In this document: positions 2,745 through 13,766 of the stretch, piece by piece
How the letters are laid out: each line of letters begins with the position of its first letter
How positions within the stretch are numbered: position 1 is the stretch's first letter
Assembly: GCA_050178385.1 (NCBI GenBank)
Contig: JBFXGD010000087.1
Coordinates: forward strand, 1 to 14,047
From: Calditrichaceae bacterium
GTDB lineage: Bacteria > Calditrichota > Calditrichia > Calditrichales > JBFXGD01
Direction: 5' to 3'
DNA length: 14,047 nucleotides
Made by a program: the position numbers and the translations under genes
Notes under the pieces: generated by a model
What the model saw: only the letters and a program-made list of their open reading frames with translations
Databases searched by the model: none
Told to the model about the DNA's origin: nothing

Positions 2745-5204
2745 ATGTACAAATTTTTACTGGTATTATTTCTGACTTCTTTTGCGCTCGCATCATCTAT
2801 CGATGTTTCCGGAACGATTGCAACCGATTCAGTGTGGGAGGCTGACACAGTTTTTGTCAAAGGTGATATTTTAATCGAAAACGGTGTTCATCTGAGCATC
2901 AATCCCGGTACGACTATTATTGCGGAAGGATTCTACAAGATTGACGTCCAGGGTTCAGTTCAAGCGGTCGGCACCTCCGTCGACTCGATTAAATTTACAG
3001 CATCCAACACAACCGAAGGGTGGAACAGAATTCTGTTCTCCGGAACGCCTGTTTCAAATGACAGTTCCTTGTTTGATTACTGCATTATTGAATACGGCAA
3101 ACCATTTACTAATTCAAATAATCCGGACGGTGGCGCTTTTTACATCACTGGCTTTTCAAAACTGAGTATTCGTCATTCCGATATTCGTCTTAATCACGGA
3201 AGTAATGCCGCAATTATTATTGATAATAGTTCCGTTCTCATTGAGAACTGCAGCATTCATGATAATAACAATTACGGTATGCTGATCGGTGGCAGTGGTT
3301 CCCTACCCGGGATTTACAATAATAAAATATTTGACAATTCAGGATCAGGCGTTTATACCGGATACTCAAATCAGGCGGATTTTGTAAACAACCTGATATT
3401 CAACAATTCCGGTTATGGGATATACAGCTATCAGTCAAATTCACGTTTTATTAACAATACTATAGTGGAAAATCAAGACGGAGGAATTAATTTCCGGATG
3501 AATTCGGTAAATGACCTGTACAATAACATTATTTATGGCAATGTGGGCACACAGGTTCAATTAGAAACTACCTGTGATCCTAATTTTTACAATTGCAATA
3601 TACAGGGCGGTACAGAAAATTTTAACGGTGACGGCGCCGGAGTCGAATATACGGGCGCTTACAGCAATTGTCTTGATAATGATCCACTCTTTATGAATAG
3701 TGAAGATGATCCTTATGCCCTCCAGGAGCTCTCTCCCTGCCGGGATAGGGGATATAACGGTATTTATGATGCTTCCCTGCCGGCGCTTGATCTATCCGGC
3801 AAACAACGGCTAAGCAACAGATTGATCGATATCGGCGCGTATGAATATTATATCAAAACAGATATCGTTTCAGGAGTATGGTCAAAAGAAAATTCACCAT
3901 ATCTGATAGACGGAAATCTCTTTATTGAAGACGGTAGCACACTGACCATCGAACCCGGCGTCGAGATAATATTCCAGGGATTTTTCCAGATCGATGTGCA
4001 GGGAACTCTTATCGCGGAAGGGACGGAGAGTGATTCAATTAAATTCACCGCGGCCAATCAGCAGGAAGGCTGGAGCCGGATTGTTTTTATTAATACTCCC
4101 GCGAACAATGACACATCGGTTTTTTCCTACTGTATTGTGGAATACGGAAATCCTTGGAGAAATCTTGACAATAGCAATAAGGATGGAGGGGCGTTTTACA
4201 TTACAGGATTTTCAAAACTCAGTATTCGGCATTCCGATATTCGTTATAATCATGGCGTCAATACAGCCGTCTATATGGATAATAGCTCCCCCGTTATCGA
4301 AAACTGCGGCATTCATGATAATTTTAGCTATGGTATGTTGATTGGTGGAAGCGATTCCCAACCGAAAATTTTCAACAATAAAATATTTAACAATTCATCA
4401 GCCGGCGTTTATACCGGATACTCCAATCAGGCGGATTTTGTCAATAATCTAATATTCAATAATTCCGGTTATGGGATATACAGCTATCAATCCAATTCAC
4501 GTTTTATTAACAATACAATAGTGGGAAATCAAAACGGAGGAATTAATTTCCGGGCGAATTCGGTAAACGATTTGTACAATAACATTATTTATGGAAATGC
4601 AGGCACACAGGTTCAATTAGAAACCACCTGTGATCCTGATTTTTACTACTGCGACATTGAAGATGATTCTTCAGGTTTCAGCGGTGACGGAGCCGGAACT
4701 GAATATAGCGGGATTTATTCCAATTGCCTGGACGTCAACCCGGAATTCGCGGATTCACTGCTCTACAACCTTTCGGAAGGTTCCGGGTGTATCGATGCCG
4801 GAACGCCGGATACAACCGGATTAAATTTGTATCCATTAGCGATAAACGGTGTTGACAGAGTTTACGGTAACCGGATTGACATCGGCGCCAGCGAATTCGG
4901 AATTCCTACCGCGATTCAAGATGACGGCTTTATGATAGCCGATTTTAAATTAAATCAAAATTATCCGAACCCGTTTAATCCGGAAACGACCATTAAATAC
5001 TCTATCTCCCGACCGGGCCATGTTAATGTAATTGTTTATAACATCCTTGGTCAAACTGTGGCGCGCCTGGTCGACAGAAATCAGGCCACCGGAAGCTACC
5101 AGGTAAAATTTGACGGTTCAAATCTCTCAAGCGGACTCTATTTTTATAGACTTTCCGTTGATAACCGCGAAAGTTCGATTAGAAAAATGATGCTGATAAA
5201 GTAA
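2745..5204 (+). CDS. Secreted right-handed parallel beta-helix repeat protein with T9SS type A C-terminal sorting domain
   Basis: AAGGAG RBS at 2733-2738 and a Sec signal (MYKFLLVLFLTSFALA). Beta-helix repeats (IENCSIHDN, NNLIFNN, INNTIV.N) occur in two modules ending DIGAYE and DIGASE. The CTD reads LNQNYPNPFNPETTIKY...LSSGLYFYRL...RKMMLIK. Confidence 0.9.
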   Translation: MYKFLLVLFLTSFALASSIDVSGTIATDSVWEADTVFVKGDILIENGVHLSINPGTTIIAEGFYKIDVQGSVQAVGTSVDSIKFTASNTTEGWNRILFSGTPVSNDSSLFDYCIIEYGKPFTNSNNPDGGAFYITGFSKLSIRHSDIRLNHGSNAAIIIDNSSVLIENCSIHDNNNYGMLIGGSGSLPGIYNNKIFDNSGSGVYTGYSNQADFVNNLIFNNSGYGIYSYQSNSRFINNTIVENQDGGINFRMNSVNDLYNNIIYGNVGTQVQLETTCDPNFYNCNIQGGTENFNGDGAGVEYTGAYSNCLDNDPLFMNSEDDPYALQELSPCRDRGYNGIYDASLPALDLSGKQRLSNRLIDIGAYEYYIKTDIVSGVWSKENSPYLIDGNLFIEDGSTLTIEPGVEIIFQGFFQIDVQGTLIAEGTESDSIKFTAANQQEGWSRIVFINTPANNDTSVFSYCIVEYGNPWRNLDNSNKDGGAFYITGFSKLSIRHSDIRYNHGVNTAVYMDNSSPVIENCGIHDNFSYGMLIGGSDSQPKIFNNKIFNNSSAGVYTGYSNQADFVNNLIFNNSGYGIYSYQSNSRFINNTIVGNQNGGINFRANSVNDLYNNIIYGNAGTQVQLETTCDPDFYYCDIEDDSSGFSGDGAGTEYSGIYSNCLDVNPEFADSLLYNLSEGSGCIDAGTPDTTGLNLYPLAINGVDRVYGNRIDIGASEFGIPTAIQDDGFMIADFKLNQNYPNPFNPETTIKYSISRPGHVNVIVYNILGQTVARLVDRNQATGSYQVKFDGSNLSSGLYFYRLSVDNRESSIRKMMLIK
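2805..4895 (+). repeat. Intragenic tandem duplication: module 1 ~2805-3845, module 2 ~3867-4895
   Basis: Both copies share DSIKFTA, DGGAFYITGFSKLSIRHSDIR and GVYTGYSNQADFVNNLIFNNSGYGIYSYQSNSRFINNTIV. Cores 3348-3590 and 4404-4646 align without gaps at offset 1056 nt, with 21 mismatches in 243 nt by manual count. Confidence 0.95.
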
Positions 5205-5226: not shown

Positions 5227-5257
5227 AAACGGCAATCCTTTCAGATTGCCGTTTTTT
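5227..5257 (+). terminator. Rho-independent terminator after the T9SS gene (possibly bidirectional with convergent yjjG)
   Basis: AAACGGCAATC-ctttca-GATTGCCGTTT 11-bp stem running into a T6 tract, 22 nt after the stop codon. Confidence 0.85.
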
Positions 5258-5289: not shown

Positions 5290-5970
5290 TTAGAGTAATG
5301 AAATCAGTTCATCCAGATTCCTGATTTCAAAATTAATTGAATTTCCCGAATTATTTTCGATACCGGAGGGATTGAACCAGCAGGTATCGATGCCATAATT
5401 TGAGCCACCGGCCATGTCAGATGTCAGGCTGTCACCCACCAGTAGAACATCTTTCCGGTCCGGATGATTCAGAATTTTAAAGACTATATCGAAAATACGT
5501 TTATCGGGTTTAGCGAAACCAACTTCTTCGGAAATAATCACATCATTAAAATAATGACCAATCGTGGAATTTGATATTCTCGGCCGCTGAACATTCTTCA
5601 AACCGTTTGTGATTAAAAAAAGCTGATATTTGGCGGAAAGATATTTTAATACATTTTCAGAGCCGTCAATCAAATCCGTCCCCTGAGCGAGATAGTTCAG
5701 ATAAACCCTGCTAAAACTGACCGGATCAATCGGTATGCCTGTTTCCGTACCCAATTGTTCAAATCGTTTCACCTTAAGATCAACCTGTGTGACATTACCG
5801 GTCTCATACTGACGCCAAAGAGCGGAGTTCAGGTTTCTGTATAACTGCAAATATGACGTTTCATACGCGAATCCAAACTTTACAAATGCAGCTTTCAGGG
5901 CTTTCGTTTCCGCTTTGTCATAGTCAAACAAAGTACCGTCTAAGTCGAACAGGATATATTTGTACGCCAT
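5290..5970 (-). CDS. yjjG: YjjG-family HAD-superfamily pyrimidine 5'-nucleotidase
   Basis: HAD motifs: I FDLDGTLFD, II LITNG, III KPD, IV VGDSLTSD. YjjG-like IISEEVGFAKPD and GIDTCWFNP. Confidence 0.85.
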   Translation of the reverse strand: MAYKYILFDLDGTLFDYDKAETKALKAAFVKFGFAYETSYLQLYRNLNSALWRQYETGNVTQVDLKVKRFEQLGTETGIPIDPVSFSRVYLNYLAQGTDLIDGSENVLKYLSAKYQLFLITNGLKNVQRPRISNSTIGHYFNDVIISEEVGFAKPDKRIFDIVFKILNHPDRKDVLLVGDSLTSDMAGGSNYGIDTCWFNPSGIENNSGNSINFEIRNLDELISLL

Positions 5971-6034
5971 TCATAATTCCCGTGTTATTTGGAATCGTAA
6001 TAAATCTGTCTCCGCAAATACTAAGTGGAAAATC

Positions 6035-6826
6035 TTATAAGGAATCGAGAAATTTCACATAGGAATCGTATCTGATTTCGGAAATTTCACCATCGTTCAC
6101 AGCTTGTTTGACAGCGCATTTAAGCTCTGTCAGATGCAGACAATCCCGGAATTTACAAAATTGATCAAATTCGCGGAACTCACGAAAATAAAACCGGGCC
6201 TCATCCCGGTGAATATCAATAAAATCGATCAACTTAATTCCCGGAAGATCTAACACCTCTGTATCTTTGTCAAGTTTATAAATTTTAAGGCTGGTGGTTG
6301 TATGACGCCCCTTGTTGGTAAGATCGCTCACTTCACCGGTCTCAATCTCAAGATCCGGTGAAATCCTGTTTAGCAAACTGCTTTTTCCCACACCGGAATG
6401 CCCGGCAAACGCTGAACGGTGTCCTTTCATCAGACTGTGAAGTTCTTCAATTCCCTCACCGGTCACAGCCGATGTGGCAATCGTCGAATAACCTATATCT
6501 GTGTACAAACTGACAAAAGAATCAATTTCCGTTCGGTCTTCAAGTAAATCAGTTTTATTCAGACAAATAATCGGTTCTACCTCTTCCAACTCGGCAAGCA
6601 CGAGAAACCGGTCTATCAGGCCGGACTTAAAAGGAGGAGATACAAAGGATGAAACGATCAGAATGCGATCCAGATTTGGCGCCAGATGCCGAATATAGGG
6701 TATTCTTTTTTCAAGATATTTTGGCAGGTCTTTTCCGTGGATAATCTCTTTTTTCTCTTTGCGGTCCTGTTTCTCCCTTAAAAAATACTGGATTTTCTTT
6801 TGTTGACGTTTTGTAATGTTTTTCAT
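6035..6826 (-). CDS. rsgA: Ribosome small subunit-dependent GTPase A (circularly permuted GTPase), apparently lacking the OB-fold domain
   Basis: Permuted motif order G4 NKTD, G5 TSA, G1 GHSGVGKS, G2 GRHTT, G3 DLPG. C-terminal Zn site CKFRDCLHLTELKC, then the RYDSY tail. Confidence 0.9.
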   Translation of the reverse strand: MKNITKRQQKKIQYFLREKQDRKEKKEIIHGKDLPKYLEKRIPYIRHLAPNLDRILIVSSFVSPPFKSGLIDRFLVLAELEEVEPIICLNKTDLLEDRTEIDSFVSLYTDIGYSTIATSAVTGEGIEELHSLMKGHRSAFAGHSGVGKSSLLNRISPDLEIETGEVSDLTNKGRHTTTSLKIYKLDKDTEVLDLPGIKLIDFIDIHRDEARFYFREFREFDQFCKFRDCLHLTELKCAVKQAVNDGEISEIRYDSYVKFLDSL

Positions 6827-6834
6827 ACGCTCTA

Positions 6835-8151
6835 TTATAAGTTTTTTTTATCAAGATAATCAAGTATCATCTTTTCCCGTGATACCGGTGTATCCGAACA
6901 AGATACCGCCGCGGAAAGCCGCTCAACAGCCGATTGAACCACATGTTCTTTATCGGTGTAAACCGTCATCAGCTTATCACCCTTTATGACTTTATCGCCC
7001 GTTTTTCTATTCAATATAATCCCGGCTTTGGGATCGATAATATCTTCTGATTTTTCTCTTCCGGCGCCCAGGGTGATTGCAGTCAGCCCAACTTCCAACG
7101 CGTTGATCCCCGAAATAAATCCTGTATTGCCGGCCAGAACATCGGATTGAAATTTTGCTTTCGGATACATCTCCGGTTTTTTCACATACGATACATCACC
7201 GTTCTGTTCCGCCACAATTTCCAGAAACTTTTCCCACGCTTTTCCGGATTTGATCATTTCCCGTGATATTTTCATACCTTCTTCAATAGACTCGGCTTTT
7301 TTACCGAGATATATCATTGTTCCGCTAAGGTAGTGTGTCACTTCCATCAAATCATCAGGACCCTCGCCTTGCATACATTCAAAGCACTCCACCATCTCCA
7401 GCCAGTTCCCAACCGTATTGCCCAATGGTTCGTTCATGTTGGTGATATAGGCAACCGTCGGTTTCCCCGCTCTTTCCCCAATGGCAATCAGGCTTTTCGC
7501 CAGTTCAACCGATTTTTCATATGACTGCATAAAAGCGCCGTTTCCCGTTTTCACATCCAGCACCAGCGCGTCAATCCCTTCGGCCAGTTTTTTACTCATA
7601 ATGCTTGCCGAAATCAGCGGAATGGACTGAATGGTCGCCGTCACATCGCGTAATGCATAAATCTTTTTATCCGCGGGGGCAAGAGATGCCGTCTGACCGA
7701 TCAGACATACGCCTGTTTTTTTAATCTTTTCACGATATTCATCAATGGAATAATCCACACGGAAACCCGGGATGCTTTGGAGTTTATCCAACGTGCCCCC
7801 TGTGTGACCAAGTCCTCGTCCCGATATCATCGGTACCGGCACACCTGCCGCCGCCACAATGGGAGCCAGAATGATTGATACCTTATCACCCACTCCACCG
7901 GTGCTGTGCTTGTCAACCTTGATACCCGGCACCTGAGTTAAATCGGCTGACTCACCTGAATGAAGCATCGTATTGGTTATTGCCAGCGTCTCCCTTGTAT
8001 TCATACCCTGCAAAAAAATAGCCATGAGCCAGGCAGCAACCTGATAATCGGGAATATCGCCCCGGGTGTATCCGTCGATCATGTAACTGATTTCCTGATC
8101 TGTTAATTCTCCCCCGTCCCGCTTCCTGCTTATAATCTCGTATGCCGTCAT
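6835..8151 (-). CDS. pdp: Pyrimidine-nucleoside (thymidine) phosphorylase
   Basis: Signatures DKHSTGGVGDK, SGRGLGHTGGTLDKL, ASIMSKK and LDVKTGNGAFM. The start is revised from 8244 to the ATG at 8151, because MTAYEIISRKRDGGEL matches the family N-terminus and GGAAAG lies upstream. Confidence 0.93.
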   Translation of the reverse strand: MTAYEIISRKRDGGELTDQEISYMIDGYTRGDIPDYQVAAWLMAIFLQGMNTRETLAITNTMLHSGESADLTQVPGIKVDKHSTGGVGDKVSIILAPIVAAAGVPVPMISGRGLGHTGGTLDKLQSIPGFRVDYSIDEYREKIKKTGVCLIGQTASLAPADKKIYALRDVTATIQSIPLISASIMSKKLAEGIDALVLDVKTGNGAFMQSYEKSVELAKSLIAIGERAGKPTVAYITNMNEPLGNTVGNWLEMVECFECMQGEGPDDLMEVTHYLSGTMIYLGKKAESIEEGMKISREMIKSGKAWEKFLEIVAEQNGDVSYVKKPEMYPKAKFQSDVLAGNTGFISGINALEVGLTAITLGAGREKSEDIIDPKAGIILNRKTGDKVIKGDKLMTVYTDKEHVVQSAVERLSAAVSCSDTPVSREKMILDYLDKKNL

Positions 8152-8256
8152 AGTATAAAATTCTTTCCGTTTATAAATATCCGTCTGATTGATGAAAAGG
8201 ATTCCCGGCCCGGTTATAATCCGGGGTTTCTTAATAAATCGCACATTGAGGATTGA

Positions 8257-9114
8257 TTAGTAATCTGAAGATTTCGCCTGACCGTTGCTTACGATTGCCA
8301 CACTCGCGCTCGCGCCGATCCTTGTCGCGCCGGCTTCCACCATTTTGCAAGCCTCATCGTAAGTGCGTACACCACCGCTTGCCTTAACGCCCATGCGCGG
8401 CCCGACCACCTGACGCATCAACGCAACATCCTTAACGGTCGCGCCACCGCTGCTGAAGCCGGTTGAAGTTTTGACAAAATTAGCTCCCGCCCGTTGGGAA
8501 ATCACGCAGGCGGTCACCTTTTCTTCGTCGGTTAGAAGACACGCTTCGATGATCACTTTTACAACACGCCGGCCCGCTGCTCTCACAACCGCGCGGATAT
8601 CACGTTCAACCATATCATAATCACCCGATTTCAGGGCGCCGACATTAATTACCATATCAATTTCTTCGGCTCCGCGGTCCACCGCCGCCTGAGTTTCGGC
8701 CGCTTTAATTTCAGGAAATGTCGCCCCAAGTGGAAAACCAACCACCGTGCATACTTTAACCTTTGAATTCCTAAGTTTTCTGCTTGCCAGAGATACCCAA
8801 AAAGGATTGATGCACACAGATGCGAAATTATTTTCGAGCGCTTCGTCACAAATTTTTTCAATGTCGTCCCTGGTGGAGTCGGGTTTCAGGAAAGTGTGAT
8901 CGATCCATCTGGCCATTTCATATTTAGGAGGGCAACTTGGCGCAACTGTACCAACACGGCTCGCGCCAAATGAAACCAGATCATTCGCTCCTTCGTAAGT
9001 GAAAGGCTTGCAGCTTTTTGGGCATTCCTCACAATTGCTGCAGTTTTCCAGATTCGACTCGCTTATAACCTGAGATATAATACTTTCGATGATTTCAGAT
9101 GTTATACTTGACAT
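8257..9114 (-). CDS. deoC: Deoxyribose-phosphate aldolase (DERA) with ~65-aa N-terminal extension
   Basis: [24 protein letters not shown], Schiff-base [24 protein letters not shown] and a C-terminal Tyr tail. The catalytic domain starts at about residue 66. Confidence 0.95.
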
Positions 9115-9191
9115 AGTTCAGCCTGATTTTTAATTATTACTTTAATTTTATTATATGATAAATTCTGTTCCACACAATTCATTCACCCGGA

Positions 9192-9467
9192 TCAGGTTTC
9201 AACAATATCCACATTGTCCACCACGCCCACGATTACCGCCTGGACAGGAATTTCATTATCGTTAAAAATGATTCTCGCGGAACCTCCCTCTCTCATCACA
9301 AGCACCTTGTCACCCATACCGGCCTGAACGGTATCCAGCGCTATGAAGGCCTTGCCTTCGGCCTGATCCGATAAATCCAGAGGCTGGACGATCATCAGTT
9401 TTTTGCCTTTGAAATGACTGTTCTTAACGGTGGATACTATATCACCGAGCACTCTGCAAATAATCAT
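9192..9467 (-). CDS. EutN/CcmL-family bacterial microcompartment vertex (BMC-P) protein
   Basis: 91 aa: MIICRVLGDIVSTVK...GKKLMIVQP...ALDTVQAGMGDKVLV...GGSAR...PVQAVIVGVVD matches the EutN/CcmL pattern. AGGA RBS; 13 nt from the upstream stop. Confidence 0.93.
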   Translation of the reverse strand: MIICRVLGDIVSTVKNSHFKGKKLMIVQPLDLSDQAEGKAFIALDTVQAGMGDKVLVMREGGSARIIFNDNEIPVQAVIVGVVDNVDIVET

Positions 9468-9480
9468 ATAGTCCTACATA

Positions 9481-10833
9481 TCACACTAATTGTTTAATTT
9501 CATCCATAAACCGATTTGCCAGGGCTTTTGCATCAGTATCCGTCTCGGCCTCCGCCATAACCCTTACGATTGGTTCCGTATTAGACTTGCGCAGGTGCAC
9601 CCAGCTCTTGTCAAAATCGATTTTTACACCATCCAGTAAATTGATATCTTCACCGGCATATTTTTTAGCTATCTTTTCCAGAACCGTGTCGGGATTCATC
9701 CCTTCAATATCCACTTTCATTTTCACGATGGTATACTGTGGCAGTGATTGATGAAGTTCAGATAATTTCCCGCCAAATTCAAGCAAATGCTGTAAGGTCA
9801 ATGCGACAGCCAGAGGCGCGTCACGCCCAAGATGAAGTTCCGGCAGGATAACCCCGCCATTTCCTTCGCCGCCGATAATCGCGTCATACTCGGCCATCAT
9901 TTCGGCGACATTAATTTCTCCGACCTTACTGCGGAGGAACATGCAATTGTAATATTTTGCGATATCTTCAGAGGCCATTGATGTGGACATATTCACTACC
10001 ACGCGCCCCATTTTCTTTGAAAGTATCAATTTCACGGCGAGTGCCAGAGTATATTCTTCTCCGATCGGTTCACCGTTCTCGTCAACAATGGCACAACGGT
10101 CCACATCCGGGTCAACGGCAAAACCGAGATCAGCGCCCGCTTCTATTACCGCTCGGCTTAACTGTGTAAGATTCTCAGGAAGCGGTTCAGGAGTGTGAGC
10201 AAACTGCCCTGTAGCATCGTCATTTATGGCGATAACTTCACAACCCATTTTACGCAGCAGCTGAGGTATAATCAGTCCACCGGCGCCATTTACCGTATCG
10301 ATTACAACCCGAAATCCCCTTTCACGCAGTTTCTGCAAATCAATATAGGGAAGATTAAGAACCGATTCGATATGGCGTTCATTTGCCCGTTCATCACTTA
10401 CTTCATCACCAAGATTCTGCCAGGTTTTTAAGCTGAATTCACCGTTATCGGCCATTTCATAAACCTGCCCGGCTTTCTCCGGACTTAAAAACCGGCCGTT
10501 TGAATCCATAAATTTCAATCCGTTCCATTGAACCGGATTATGACTGGCGGTAATGGCGATGCCGCCTTCTGCCTTATAGTATTCAATGGACATCTGCACA
10601 GTCGGCGTGGGAACAATCCCTATATCAATCACTTTGCAGCCTGTTGCCATCAGACAGCCCTTCACGATTGACAGAACAAAAGGTCCCGAAACTCTTGAAT
10701 CCCGTCCGACAACAACTGTACCGCCATTTAAATAGGTACCGTAAGCAAGGGTATATTTCTGTATTATTTCAGGTGTAAGGGTACTTCCTATTTCTCCGCG
10801 TACGCCCGATATTGAAACCATTAGCGTGGACAA
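9481..10833 (-). CDS. glmM: Alpha-D-phosphohexomutase family enzyme (GlmM / PMM-PGM type; exact substrate uncertain)
   Basis: Phosphoserine loop ITASHNP, metal loop DPDVDR, sugar loop GGEGNGG and C-terminal RKSNTEPIVRV. TTG start with AGGAGG RBS at 10845-10840. The family is certain; the gene symbol is less so. Confidence 0.75.
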   Translation of the reverse strand: MSTLMVSISGVRGEIGSTLTPEIIQKYTLAYGTYLNGGTVVVGRDSRVSGPFVLSIVKGCLMATGCKVIDIGIVPTPTVQMSIEYYKAEGGIAITASHNPVQWNGLKFMDSNGRFLSPEKAGQVYEMADNGEFSLKTWQNLGDEVSDERANERHIESVLNLPYIDLQKLRERGFRVVIDTVNGAGGLIIPQLLRKMGCEVIAINDDATGQFAHTPEPLPENLTQLSRAVIEAGADLGFAVDPDVDRCAIVDENGEPIGEEYTLALAVKLILSKKMGRVVVNMSTSMASEDIAKYYNCMFLRSKVGEINVAEMMAEYDAIIGGEGNGGVILPELHLGRDAPLAVALTLQHLLEFGGKLSELHQSLPQYTIVKMKVDIEGMNPDTVLEKIAKKYAGEDINLLDGVKIDFDKSWVHLRKSNTEPIVRVMAEAETDTDAKALANRFMDEIKQLV

Positions 10834-10880: not shown

Positions 10881-10909
10881 AATATAAACTTAAACTGTTA
10901 TAAATACAA
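10881..10909 (-). promoter_or_regulatory. Candidate sigma70-type promoter for the mutase-BMC-P-deoC-pdp-rsgA-yjjG run
   Basis: Minus strand TTGTAT (10909-10904), 17-nt spacer, TATATT (10886-10881), ~48 nt upstream of the TTG start. Confidence 0.5.
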
Positions 10910-11092: not shown

Positions 11093-13057
11093 TCAGATTT
11101 TTGTCATCAGAACACTAATTTGATCCGGATGACCAAGCACAATAAGTTGATCACCCGCGGAAATCCGTTCTTCGGATGAAGGATTTGAAATCACATTTTT
11201 TGCCCTGATAATTGCCAGCAGTGTCACGCCGTATTTTTTGCGAAGTCCGATCTCTGAGAGTGTTTTATCCGCAAAACCGGAAACCTGATTCACCGTCATT
11301 CGGCTCACCCGGACATCGGGGAGCTTTAAATCATCCAGTGCATGTACCGACCAGTCCGGCTTTCTGAGTTGGTTATATCCATCGGCCCGAACTTCGGAGT
11401 TGAGCGCGTCTATGAGTTCATCGGAAATCAAAAATCTTTTTAGGACGCGGGTAAAAATTTCAATGGATGACTCAAATTCTTCTGCGACGATTTCATCGGC
11501 GCCAAGCTCCCGAAGCGGTTCGATCTCCCTCACAAAACGGGTTCTCACGATGATATAAAGTTCTGGATTTTCAAGCTTTGCCAGAAAAACAATCCTTCTC
11601 ACAGCCGCAGCATCGGACACCGCGACTACCATTACCCTGGCCAAATGTATCCCCGCCTGCTTCAGAACAGACCGCTGGCAGGCATCCCCAAAATAAATCG
11701 GTTCACCTTTAAATCTTTCCTTTCTTACCGTCTCCGGATTCATTTCGAGTATGAGATAAGGAATTTGCGCCGATCGGGCTGTGTGAGCCAGATTTCTCCC
11801 GCTTAATCCGTATCCGGCAATAATAAGATGTTTTTCAAGTGTTTTTGTCGCGTTGTATTCTGAGAATTTCCTGTTCTTCAGTCCGGCAGGAAGCGGTAAA
11901 AAATTTGCAATTCTGTCTGAATATTCACCTATTCTAATCAGAAAGGGTGTGAAAATCATGGTTAGAATCGTGACCGACAAGAAAATCTGATAAAATTCTC
12001 CGGAAATTAACGCCTGACTGTAGCCTTCTTTTGCCAGAACGAATGAGAACTCACCTATTTGAGCCAGCGCCAGAGCCACAAATACAGCTGTACGCAATGG
12101 GTATCCCAAAATCAAAGCAGCAGCTCCGGATGTAAATAATTTTAGCAAGACGAGTGCAAGAAGAACAAAAATTATTATTTCATAGTGATTGAGAATCGTC
12201 CTGATATCCAGCAGCATCCCCACCGATACAAAGAAGAAACTTAAAAAGATATCACGAAACGGCAATATATGCGAAATGGCGTTATGACTGTATTCTGATT
12301 CTGAAATCATCAGACCAGCTAAAAACGCTCCCAGCGCCAATGATAGTCCGATCATTGATGTCAGCCAGGCAATGGCGAAGGCAAGAAAGACGATGCTTAA
12401 CAAAAAGAGTTCACGAAGCTGGGTTTTTGCAATCTGAAAAAATATTTTGGGTATCAGCCAGCGGGTTCCCACAAAAACAAACACGACCAGCAGGGTGGCT
12501 TTACCGAGGAGCAACGCGATATAACTGGTGTTAATCTGACTGTTGCCGGATAACAGAGGCGTTAAAATCATCATTGGAACTATAACAATATCCTGAAAAA
12601 TCAGGATACTCAGAGATGTCCGCCCGTGAGGCGCGTCGATCGCCGAAGATGCCTGTAACTGATTTAACACAATCGCGGTGCTGCTCAAAGCAACCAGAAA
12701 TCCAAAAAAGATTGATTTTTCCCAGCTAAAATCAAAAAGTTGCGCGATAACCGCTGTTAGCAGAATAGTCAGTCCGACCTGTATCGAGCCGCCGACCAAA
12801 ACGGTCCGTCTTAATTCAAACAAATGTTTAAATGAGAATTCCAGCCCGATAGAGAACAACAGGAGAATAACGCCTATTTCCGCCATAACTTCAACTTCAT
12901 GCATGGCGCTAACAAGTGAAAGCCCTGCCGGTCCGGCCAGGACTCCCGTAATCAAAAACCCAACGATCGGGGGTATTTTTAACTTACTGCAAATAAAGGA
13001 AACAGGAATTGATAGCCCTAGAATTATAACTATCTCAACAAGAAGCGGTATTTCCAT
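11093..13057 (-). CDS. CPA2-family cation:proton antiporter (Kef/YbaL-like) with TrkA_N and TrkA_C domains
   Basis: Multi-TM N-terminal domain with AEIGVILLLFSIGLE, LSSTAIV, ILIFQD, LGAFLAG and QIGEFSFVL. Rossmann IIAGYGLSG and YFGDA follow, then RCK_C-like KTLSEIGLRKKYGVTLLAIIR...GDQLIVLG. Confidence 0.92.
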   Translation of the reverse strand: MEIPLLVEIVIILGLSIPVSFICSKLKIPPIVGFLITGVLAGPAGLSLVSAMHEVEVMAEIGVILLLFSIGLEFSFKHLFELRRTVLVGGSIQVGLTILLTAVIAQLFDFSWEKSIFFGFLVALSSTAIVLNQLQASSAIDAPHGRTSLSILIFQDIVIVPMMILTPLLSGNSQINTSYIALLLGKATLLVVFVFVGTRWLIPKIFFQIAKTQLRELFLLSIVFLAFAIAWLTSMIGLSLALGAFLAGLMISESEYSHNAISHILPFRDIFLSFFFVSVGMLLDIRTILNHYEIIIFVLLALVLLKLFTSGAAALILGYPLRTAVFVALALAQIGEFSFVLAKEGYSQALISGEFYQIFLSVTILTMIFTPFLIRIGEYSDRIANFLPLPAGLKNRKFSEYNATKTLEKHLIIAGYGLSGRNLAHTARSAQIPYLILEMNPETVRKERFKGEPIYFGDACQRSVLKQAGIHLARVMVVAVSDAAAVRRIVFLAKLENPELYIIVRTRFVREIEPLRELGADEIVAEEFESSIEIFTRVLKRFLISDELIDALNSEVRADGYNQLRKPDWSVHALDDLKLPDVRVSRMTVNQVSGFADKTLSEIGLRKKYGVTLLAIIRAKNVISNPSSEERISAGDQLIVLGHPDQISVLMTKI

Positions 13058-13391: not shown

Positions 13392-13766
13392 TTAGTCACA
13401 ATTCTTAAACACATCTATTAACCGGTCAATCAACCGATCGACATTGGCGAGAATCGCCGAAATATCATCACCGGTTAAATCATCATAATGAATTCCGGCT
13501 GAAACAGCTACGTTTCTTCTTAAGGCCTTACTTAACCTGTATGCAGCTTTTTTTACAAGATCATCCTCCTTATGGCCGTGAACGGAAATAACCGACGAGT
13601 TTGCCTTTGCCTTATCCAGGTCATAGCAAATCCCCAAACCGATTGCTCCGATATGAGATTCACCACCGCTGATTATTATCTGAAGATCTCTTCCCACCTC
13701 AAGACAGAGCAGGTTGACCCGCTGCTTCTCTTTGCCTTCTTCAAATTCGATTTGTTTTTTATTCAT
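13392..13766 (-). CDS. LpdD-like (prenylated-flavin chaperone / proteasome-assembly-chaperone-like fold) small protein
   Basis: Motifs VGRDLQIIISGGESHIGA, GHKEDDL and VAVSAGIHYDDLT match my recollection of the LpdD-like family. Confidence 0.65.
   Translation of the reverse strand: MNKKQIEFEEGKEKQRVNLLCLEVGRDLQIIISGGESHIGAIGLGICYDLDKAKANSSVISVHGHKEDDLVKKAAYRLSKALRRNVAVSAGIHYDDLTGDDISAILANVDRLIDRLIDVFKNCD

Follow-up and report, generated by a model that had tools for sequence, protein, structure and literature searches.

A vertex gene and an extended deoC in the Calditrichales as a likely FRAG3-like satellite of a split SPU-like microcompartment

Six co-oriented genes occupy the minus strand between positions 5290 and 10 833 of a 14 047-nucleotide stretch, here called the window, of contig JBFXGD010000087.1 from a Calditrichaceae bacterium (assembly GCA_050178385.1). 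Two of them encode a bacterial microcompartment (BMC) vertex protein and an N-terminally extended deoxyribose-phosphate aldolase, DeoC (DERA). The best explanation, to which we give a probability of about two in three, is that these two genes are one satellite of a single sugar-phosphate-utilisation (SPU)-like microcompartment with genes at five chromosomal places, and that glmM, rsgA and yjjG of the same run are housekeeping genes. The run is likely to be FRAG3-like, a satellite belonging to a split organelle of SPU-like type, and not a formal SPU locus. Gene content, linkage, motifs and trees are the observed level of the analysis; enzymatic roles, encapsulation and co-expression are deduced from it. 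The genome studied (G000) carries the window on contig C87, and its other contigs are labelled in the same way (C3, C34, C86, C95, C161 and so on). The sample of relatives comprises 60 genomes of the phylum, 30 of them in the same order, including the congener G016; G004 and G005 are single-contig genomes. Adjacency of vertex genes was judged on fetched loci, in which small open reading frames (ORFs) were labelled by tblastn, and other orders were compared through 19 fetched loci.

The vertex gene (BMC-P, EutN/CcmL; 9192–9467, minus strand) matches PF03319 with 93 bits, and its product shares 98% and 72% identity with its counterparts in two relatives. The genome holds five BMC-P genes and 15 BMC-domain matches. 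Across the 30 order genomes, BMC-P is found in 30, hexamers or trimers (BMC-H/T) in 29 and the aldehyde dehydrogenase (AldDH) of the main shell locus in 26. Vertex gene and deoC are adjacent in 16 of 29 order genomes, and deoC and pdp in 17 of 27. An earlier note on this DNA had tied a microcompartment to deoxyribose-5-phosphate catabolism, and had looked to hexamer genes in the genome and to linkage of BMC-P and deoC with pdp in relatives as checks. Both were found, the linkage in part of the order, and the tie is supported. The core glmM–vertex–deoC–pdp–rsgA is complete in 11 of 30 order genomes; nine of the loci behind this count were only about 3–4 kb wide, so that rsgA could fall beyond their edges. 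The six-gene form recurs in the congener only (1/30).

DeoC (8257–9114, minus strand; above the TIGR00126 cut-off) carries about 65 extra N-terminal residues and is the sole copy in the genome. Its model has the DERA fold, and D153, K215 and K244 are invariant in 41 aligned rows. SPU aldolases are marked by three catalytic residues and by some 70 additional N-terminal residues that include an amphipathic helix, and the enzyme has both features, the helix at low confidence. In all 30 order genomes, homologues align from residue 1 and keep the extension with high identity, and 58–74 residues precede the barrel in all 26 Calditrichales-type rows. The extension is laid out as an amphipathic helix (residues 6–19), a variable linker and a conserved helix-strand element (38–58; window 8941–9003). 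HHalign pairs this element with the extension of SPU3 DERA at 87.5%, and with the enzyme's own last helix-strand unit at 86%, against at most 3% for five control proteins. This suggests that the element arose by internal duplication; the accessible text of Dwyer 2024 (PMC11585597) does not contain the string 'duplicat'. We infer that the extension may act as an encapsulation peptide. Its top match in a comparison with AldDH is the AldDH N-terminal peptide, at 3% only. Ten DeoC-bearing genomes have no vertex gene among the matches listed; six of these have a short DeoC, two an unrelated helical extension and two long frames in incomplete assemblies. The base of the DeoC tree is unresolved.

The main new result is a second RpiB, encoded far from the window on C86 (L129:1267–1938) between hutH and guaB. 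Some 45 residues form an additional N-terminal domain, and this extended form is found in 27 of 30 order genomes, where a Cys-type RpiB is usually present as well. The catalytic Cys is replaced by Asp (D141) in 29 of 29 aligned extended copies, and is kept in 16 of 16 housekeeping-type copies. A tree that took in 12 of the 29 extended rows splits the housekeeping type from extended and SPU3-fused RpiB at 100/99. Dwyer 2024 (PMC11585597) describes Asp in place of this Cys for every SPU RPI, along with an isomerase activity that is negligible and, in SPU6, binding to DERA; the SPU-type isomerase of this genome is the remote copy. A profile of the N-terminal domain retrieves three ORFs from the whole genome: the extended RpiB itself, EutQ and a EutQ-N-like protein of the main shell locus, the latter two both within BMC loci. 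HHalign values for these matches are 99% (EutQ-N-like protein) and 96%, and the EutQ model is matched by 16 of 29 extended RpiB N-domains. The domain corresponds to the first part of EutQ, H1/H2. In Salmonella, EutQ attaches to the shell through helices H1/H2, and cargo peptides are bound by the two helices after these (PMC12487888). By analogy, the RpiB domain is likely to be a shell-binding domain.

The main shell locus lies on C161. It encodes a EutK-like hexamer of 188 residues with a tail of about 100, ParA, the EutQ-N-like protein of 100 residues, PTA, two hexamers, AldDH, EutJ, PduS and PduT. Gene content was read in 14 such loci, this one and those of 13 relatives. The core recurs in the relatives, with EutJ, PduS and PduT absent or elsewhere in some, and in none of the 14 loci was a vertex gene, DeoC or EutABC matched. 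The main-locus AldDH is closer to SPU3-like AldDH than to PVM-like AldDH. A formal SPU locus unites AldDH and DERA or RPI with shell genes. Here, AldDH is on C161, DERA on C87 and RPI on C86, and these genes come within 4 kb of each other in G058 only. Two further vertex genes are found on C3, directly behind a true deoB; this order, deoB directly before vertex genes, occurs in 13 of the 20 order genomes that have deoB. A fourth locus, on C34 (L091:3082–5300), holds a vertex gene of a distinct clade, followed by the gene for an ACT protein whose N-terminal helix is amphipathic, and by DUF711. This set is kept in G004, G005 and G056, there with PduS/T in between, and a similar ACT protein is mentioned for FRAG4 (Sutter 2021, PMC8217296). 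A second PduS/PduT pair is present on C206, and the end of C263 carries a PduT fragment matching the C161 copy. An alcohol dehydrogenase of the iron type, whose N-terminal helix is short and resembles such a peptide, is encoded far from shell genes (C175:5204–6400); it is possibly further cargo.

Sister orders offer a view of how such dispersal could have come about. Among the 19 other-order loci, seven complete and two partial ones show a contiguous, SPU3-like arrangement of RpiB–DeoC fusion, T, H, P, AldDH, T, P and P. In G027 this locus lies between glmM and pdp. In family f5 its neighbours, behind it or flanking it, are a sigma factor gene and glmM, and shell-less f5 genomes retain a short deoC, sigma, glmM and pdp. 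The main locus of G058 is about 2 kb from glmM. From the gene order in f5 and G027, an SPU3-like neighbourhood seems to have left two remnants: the window, and the C3 locus with its vertex pair and sigma gene. In the vertex tree, two of three vertex types group with SPU3 triplet members, and the window gene falls with the final vertex gene of the SPU3-like loci of sister orders (branch 97/92), a branch that also contains vertex genes from unrelated triplets. The tree has matching clades for this history; direct descent is not shown.

The earlier note had read the run as a dedicated feeder operon, in which YjjG, Pdp, the mutase as phosphopentomutase and DeoC would cover the whole route from deoxynucleoside monophosphates to acetaldehyde and glyceraldehyde-3-phosphate. 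The short gaps and the single conserved promoter speak for it, as does the age of the glmM–pdp adjacency, which is seen in 18 of the 29 other-order genomes and also in family f7, a family in which no DeoB was found (0/12). A pentomutase of the PGM family exists in Thermococcus, and a hexose-type relative has low pentose activity (PMC11641776). Against it stands the mutase itself (9481–10 833, minus strand, TTG start). Its domain matches are to PGM/PMM only and not to the DeoB family, and it scores 537.7 bits with TIGR03990 (Arch_GlmM; cut-off 439). Genes of its family exceed this cut-off in 59 of 60 relatives, including genomes without DeoC or shells. No gene of the genome exceeds the cut-off for classical GlmM (TIGR01455), and the only two further PGM-family genes are under that of Arch_GlmM, so that the window mutase is the sole GlmM candidate. 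Its motif III, GEGN, resembles the GEEN of hexomutases and not the AAEP that marks the solved PGM-family pentomutase (PMC11641776), and it scores better against hexomutases (E 1e-93) than against that pentomutase (E 1e-54). The sequence thus points to an archaeal-type GlmM, an alpha-D-phosphohexomutase, which is likely a housekeeping enzyme and not a phosphopentomutase; the latter assignment was rejected on the hexose-type motif, the GlmM score and the separate true DeoB. A side activity on pentoses could be considered in view of the old glmM–pdp adjacency and of the 10 of 30 order genomes in which DeoB was not found. With deoB on C3, yjjG at this locus in one of 30 genomes and an RsgA that belongs to ribosome assembly, the claim that the run encodes the whole route is not supported, and a feeder operon is improbable.

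A somewhat better, though still doubtful, case can be made for DeoC as an ordinary cytosolic salvage enzyme beside a vertex gene that is a relic of a broken-up SPU locus, the main compartment handling another aldehyde. Genomes in which no vertex gene was found still link glmM to pdp (7/13) and have deoC near glmM (5/10). The promoter is of housekeeping type, the encapsulation-peptide profile misses DeoC, and 13 of 29 order genomes lack the vertex–deoC linkage, three of these at contig ends. What such a relic would leave unexplained is the DeoC extension, present at high identity throughout the order and absent from most shell-less relatives. The Asp-type RpiB with its BMC-type domain has likewise been kept in nearly all order genomes, even though the Cys type is usually present too. 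Far less probable again is a vertex protein serving an ethanolamine compartment, with its adjacency to deoC incidental. The genome does have such a locus on C95 (L089), with eutABCL, hexamers and AldDH; this locus has its own vertex gene, and its AldDH nests within the main-locus AldDH clade. By gene content and AldDH tree, it looks like a recent duplicate of the main locus with eutABCL added. EutB was found in one of five relatives tested, the congener, and not in the single-contig genomes. The window-type vertex gene stands beside deoC in G004, G013 and G014, genomes without eutBC. On the grounds of the separate C95 vertex gene and of these eutBC-less genomes, service to the ethanolamine locus was rejected.

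Several observations weigh against the preferred reading, a single split SPU-like organelle. All seven genomes of genus g3 have glmM–deoC only, and neither they nor several other genomes have a vertex gene beside deoC; in the loci read, such genomes have a vertex triplet of a different, PVM-like type. DeoB was not found in a third of the order genomes, as noted above, and the vertex tree does not trace the vertex genes directly to the SPU3 triplet of sister orders. In G057, which is 98% complete, vertices, extended DeoC and extended RpiB are kept, while hexamer and AldDH were not found. PduL, which the earlier note wished to see searched for in the genome together with AldDH and RpiB, was not found in the search; the other two are present at remote loci. 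The Tdp trimer is absent from the main locus and present in SPU3-like loci. DeoC helix 6–19 is modelled with low confidence (pLDDT ~65), and an encapsulation-peptide profile built on the AldDH N-terminus does not place the DeoC N-terminus in the top 25 of 4464 N-termini. Finally, G002 (L083) and G003 (L080), in which no shell genes were found, have a DeoC with a helical 64-residue extension that is non-homologous by HHalign. Loci L095, L100, L103 and L107 provide a separate observation: in the loci read, several genera have no native vertex triplet and a PVM-like one instead, with or without the enzymes of PVM-like loci.

A mechanism can be proposed for the split organelle. The roles of YjjG, Pdp, RsgA, PTA and NupC are assumed here from family names and general knowledge. 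(i) NupC-type transporters would bring in nucleosides. (ii) Pdp, which converts nucleosides to (deoxy)ribose-1-phosphate, would release deoxyribose-1-phosphate in the cytosol together with purine phosphorylases. (iii) DeoB, encoded on C3 beside two vertex genes, would form deoxyribose-5-phosphate, also in the cytosol. (iv) The sugar phosphate would enter a shell of C161 hexamers and PduT, capped by the satellite vertices, where encapsulated DeoC would receive it. (v) Acetaldehyde would be converted to acetyl-CoA and acetyl-phosphate by main-locus AldDH and PTA, and acetate kinase would yield acetate. (vi) PduS/PduT would recycle NADH. An apparent nucleoside salvage cluster on C27 (22207–28244) has family hits to a purine phosphorylase and a NupC-type transporter, and ORFs resembling cytidine deaminase, uridine kinase and thymidine kinase were recognised there by eye; it has no shell gene. 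A bolder extension applies to the whole order: a constitutive DNA-sugar organelle expressed from five housekeeping loci, with the altered RpiB–EutQ-type fusion as an adaptor between DeoC and shell, a way of loading the aldolase that would be new, and part of the DeoC extension derived from a duplicated last helix-strand unit of the barrel. It is offered tentatively, as the less probable outcome.

The six-gene run by itself is ordinary. The co-orientation and the gaps of 13, 77, 105, 8 and 64 nt given earlier are confirmed for six minus-strand ORFs. Pyrimidine-nucleoside phosphorylase, Pdp (6835–8151, minus strand, ATG start), scores 560.7 bits with TIGR02644 (cut-off 409). It is encoded in single copy, has no N-terminal extension and is likely cytosolic; a longer frame with a GTG start at 8244 was rejected, as relatives do not support it. 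RsgA (6035–6826, minus strand) is above the TIGR00157 cut-off. RsgA is a GTPase of ribosome assembly, and this one, the only copy in the genome, is a housekeeping passenger in the run. It has the GTPase Pfam domain only: a basic helical start replaces the N-terminal OB-fold, and the short N-terminus is alike in the 10 relatives read. The last gene encodes a YjjG-family pyrimidine nucleotidase (5290–5970, minus strand; above the TIGR02254 cut-off). Members of this family occur in 10 of the 30 order genomes, and only the congener has one at this locus. The gene is a genus-specific addition; its candidacy as a conserved part of the run was rejected. As a group, glmM, rsgA and yjjG are likely to be co-located housekeeping genes.

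The proposed regulatory elements fared unevenly. A candidate promoter at 10881–10909 (minus strand) before glmM has a conserved -35/-10 pattern, although a generic promoter scan misses it. The same pattern lies 35–47 nt before glmM in 15 of the 17 order relatives whose fetched locus holds the glmM start (shuffled mean 0.06), a count that is partly circular because the pattern was derived from those sequences. The element is near-identical in the closest relative. Genome-wide the pattern has 159 occurrences, and 74 unrelated ORFs have it close to their start; the element is therefore likely to be a housekeeping-type promoter, and promoters of this type would suggest constitutive expression. Inspection by eye revealed no operator common to the regions upstream of the dispersed loci, where there is the generic promoter pattern only; no formal motif search was made. 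The terminator placed at 5227–5257 is a real hairpin (5227–5254) between convergent genes, but its U-tract is on the plus strand and serves the convergent gene at 2745–5204. A run-specific terminator was rejected on this ground; for the six-gene run the hairpin is at best a shared, bidirectional one. The convergent gene (plus strand) encodes a beta-helix protein of 819 residues; it contains an internal repeat and, at its C-terminus, a sorting domain of the type IX secretion system type. Upstream of the run lie a CPA2/Kef-type potassium antiporter gene (11093–13057) and a PAC_bac (proteasome-chaperone-like) gene (13392–13766), both on the minus strand; neither was found beside glmM in other genera.

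FRAG3 was described from Calditrichaeota with an aldolase (pfam01791) beside a vertex gene which 'could give a clue' (Sutter 2021, PMC8217296, Supplementary Data 2). The present system likewise belongs to Calditrichaeota, has a pfam01791 aldolase next to BMC-P, shell genes in several places and a vertex triplet. Unlike FRAG3, it has two standard hexamers plus the EutK-like one with its long tail, PduS/T, PTA and AldDH. On the number of hexamers it departs from the FRAG3 description, which G056 fits better, and the run is accordingly called FRAG3-like. The FRAG3 catalogue text leaves function open and names no RpiB, DeoB, Pdp or AldDH. Matching shell genes of Caldithrix LF13 are catalogued not as FRAG3 but as 'fragmented (sat) (omitted)' (Sutter 2021, PMC8217296). 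The arrangement of the main locus resembles that of Caldithrix abyssi, where AldDH, a PTAC of the pta type and PduS occur and which was called 'MIC' for want of a signature enzyme (Axen 2014, PMC4207490). Unlike there, a candidate signature enzyme (the remote DeoC) and its partner (the remote RpiB) can be named here.

The marks of SPU loci were defined by Dwyer 2024 (PMC11585597), where deoB is named as an upstream step, fragmented loci were removed and one SPU3 Calditrichaeota row appears in the searched supplements. SPU3 and SPU6 share with the present system an N-terminally extended DERA with intact catalytic triad, an Asp-type RPI, an acylating AldDH with an N-terminal peptide, three or more vertex genes, and a BMC-Ts. 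Further features of SPU6 are a short protein resembling EutQ, EutJ and ethanolamine (EUT) modules. Unlike SPU, the genes here lie at five loci instead of one, RPI is unfused and has a EutQ-H1/H2-like domain in place of a classical helix peptide, Tdp trimer and PduL are lacking, and pdp and deoB stand beside vertex genes. A link of pdp, deoB or extended RpiB to Calditrichota compartments did not appear in titles and abstract openings among the matches listed.

The work provides a testable function for a compartment left unassigned in two catalogues (MIC in 2014; FRAG3 or 'fragmented, omitted' in 2021), and the lineage concerned has a cultured member. It opens a route to other FRAG types, through genome-wide hunts for remote enzymes with SPU marks (Asp-type RpiB, EutQ-N domain). 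It may also bear on the role of the near-inactive SPU RPI, which here has a likely shell-binding domain. A DNA-degrading role has been proposed for compartments of other phyla (PMC9324843). For an SPU-type archaeal microcompartment of Hodarchaeales, the same cytosolic feeder of nucleotidase, phosphorylase and pentomutase was proposed, followed by DERA and AldDH inside (PMC12747264). That system, unlike the present one, is a single operon with DNA-binding tails on the vertex protein, and its feeder enzymes are described as being in the genome and not beside shell genes. The feeder route behind the upstream arrangement that the earlier note put forward as a possible novelty was already proposed for SPU-type compartments, and the vertex–deoC pairing itself is catalogued as FRAG3. 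What is new is the order-wide dispersal of SPU parts, including the EutQ-domain RpiB in 27 of 30 genomes.

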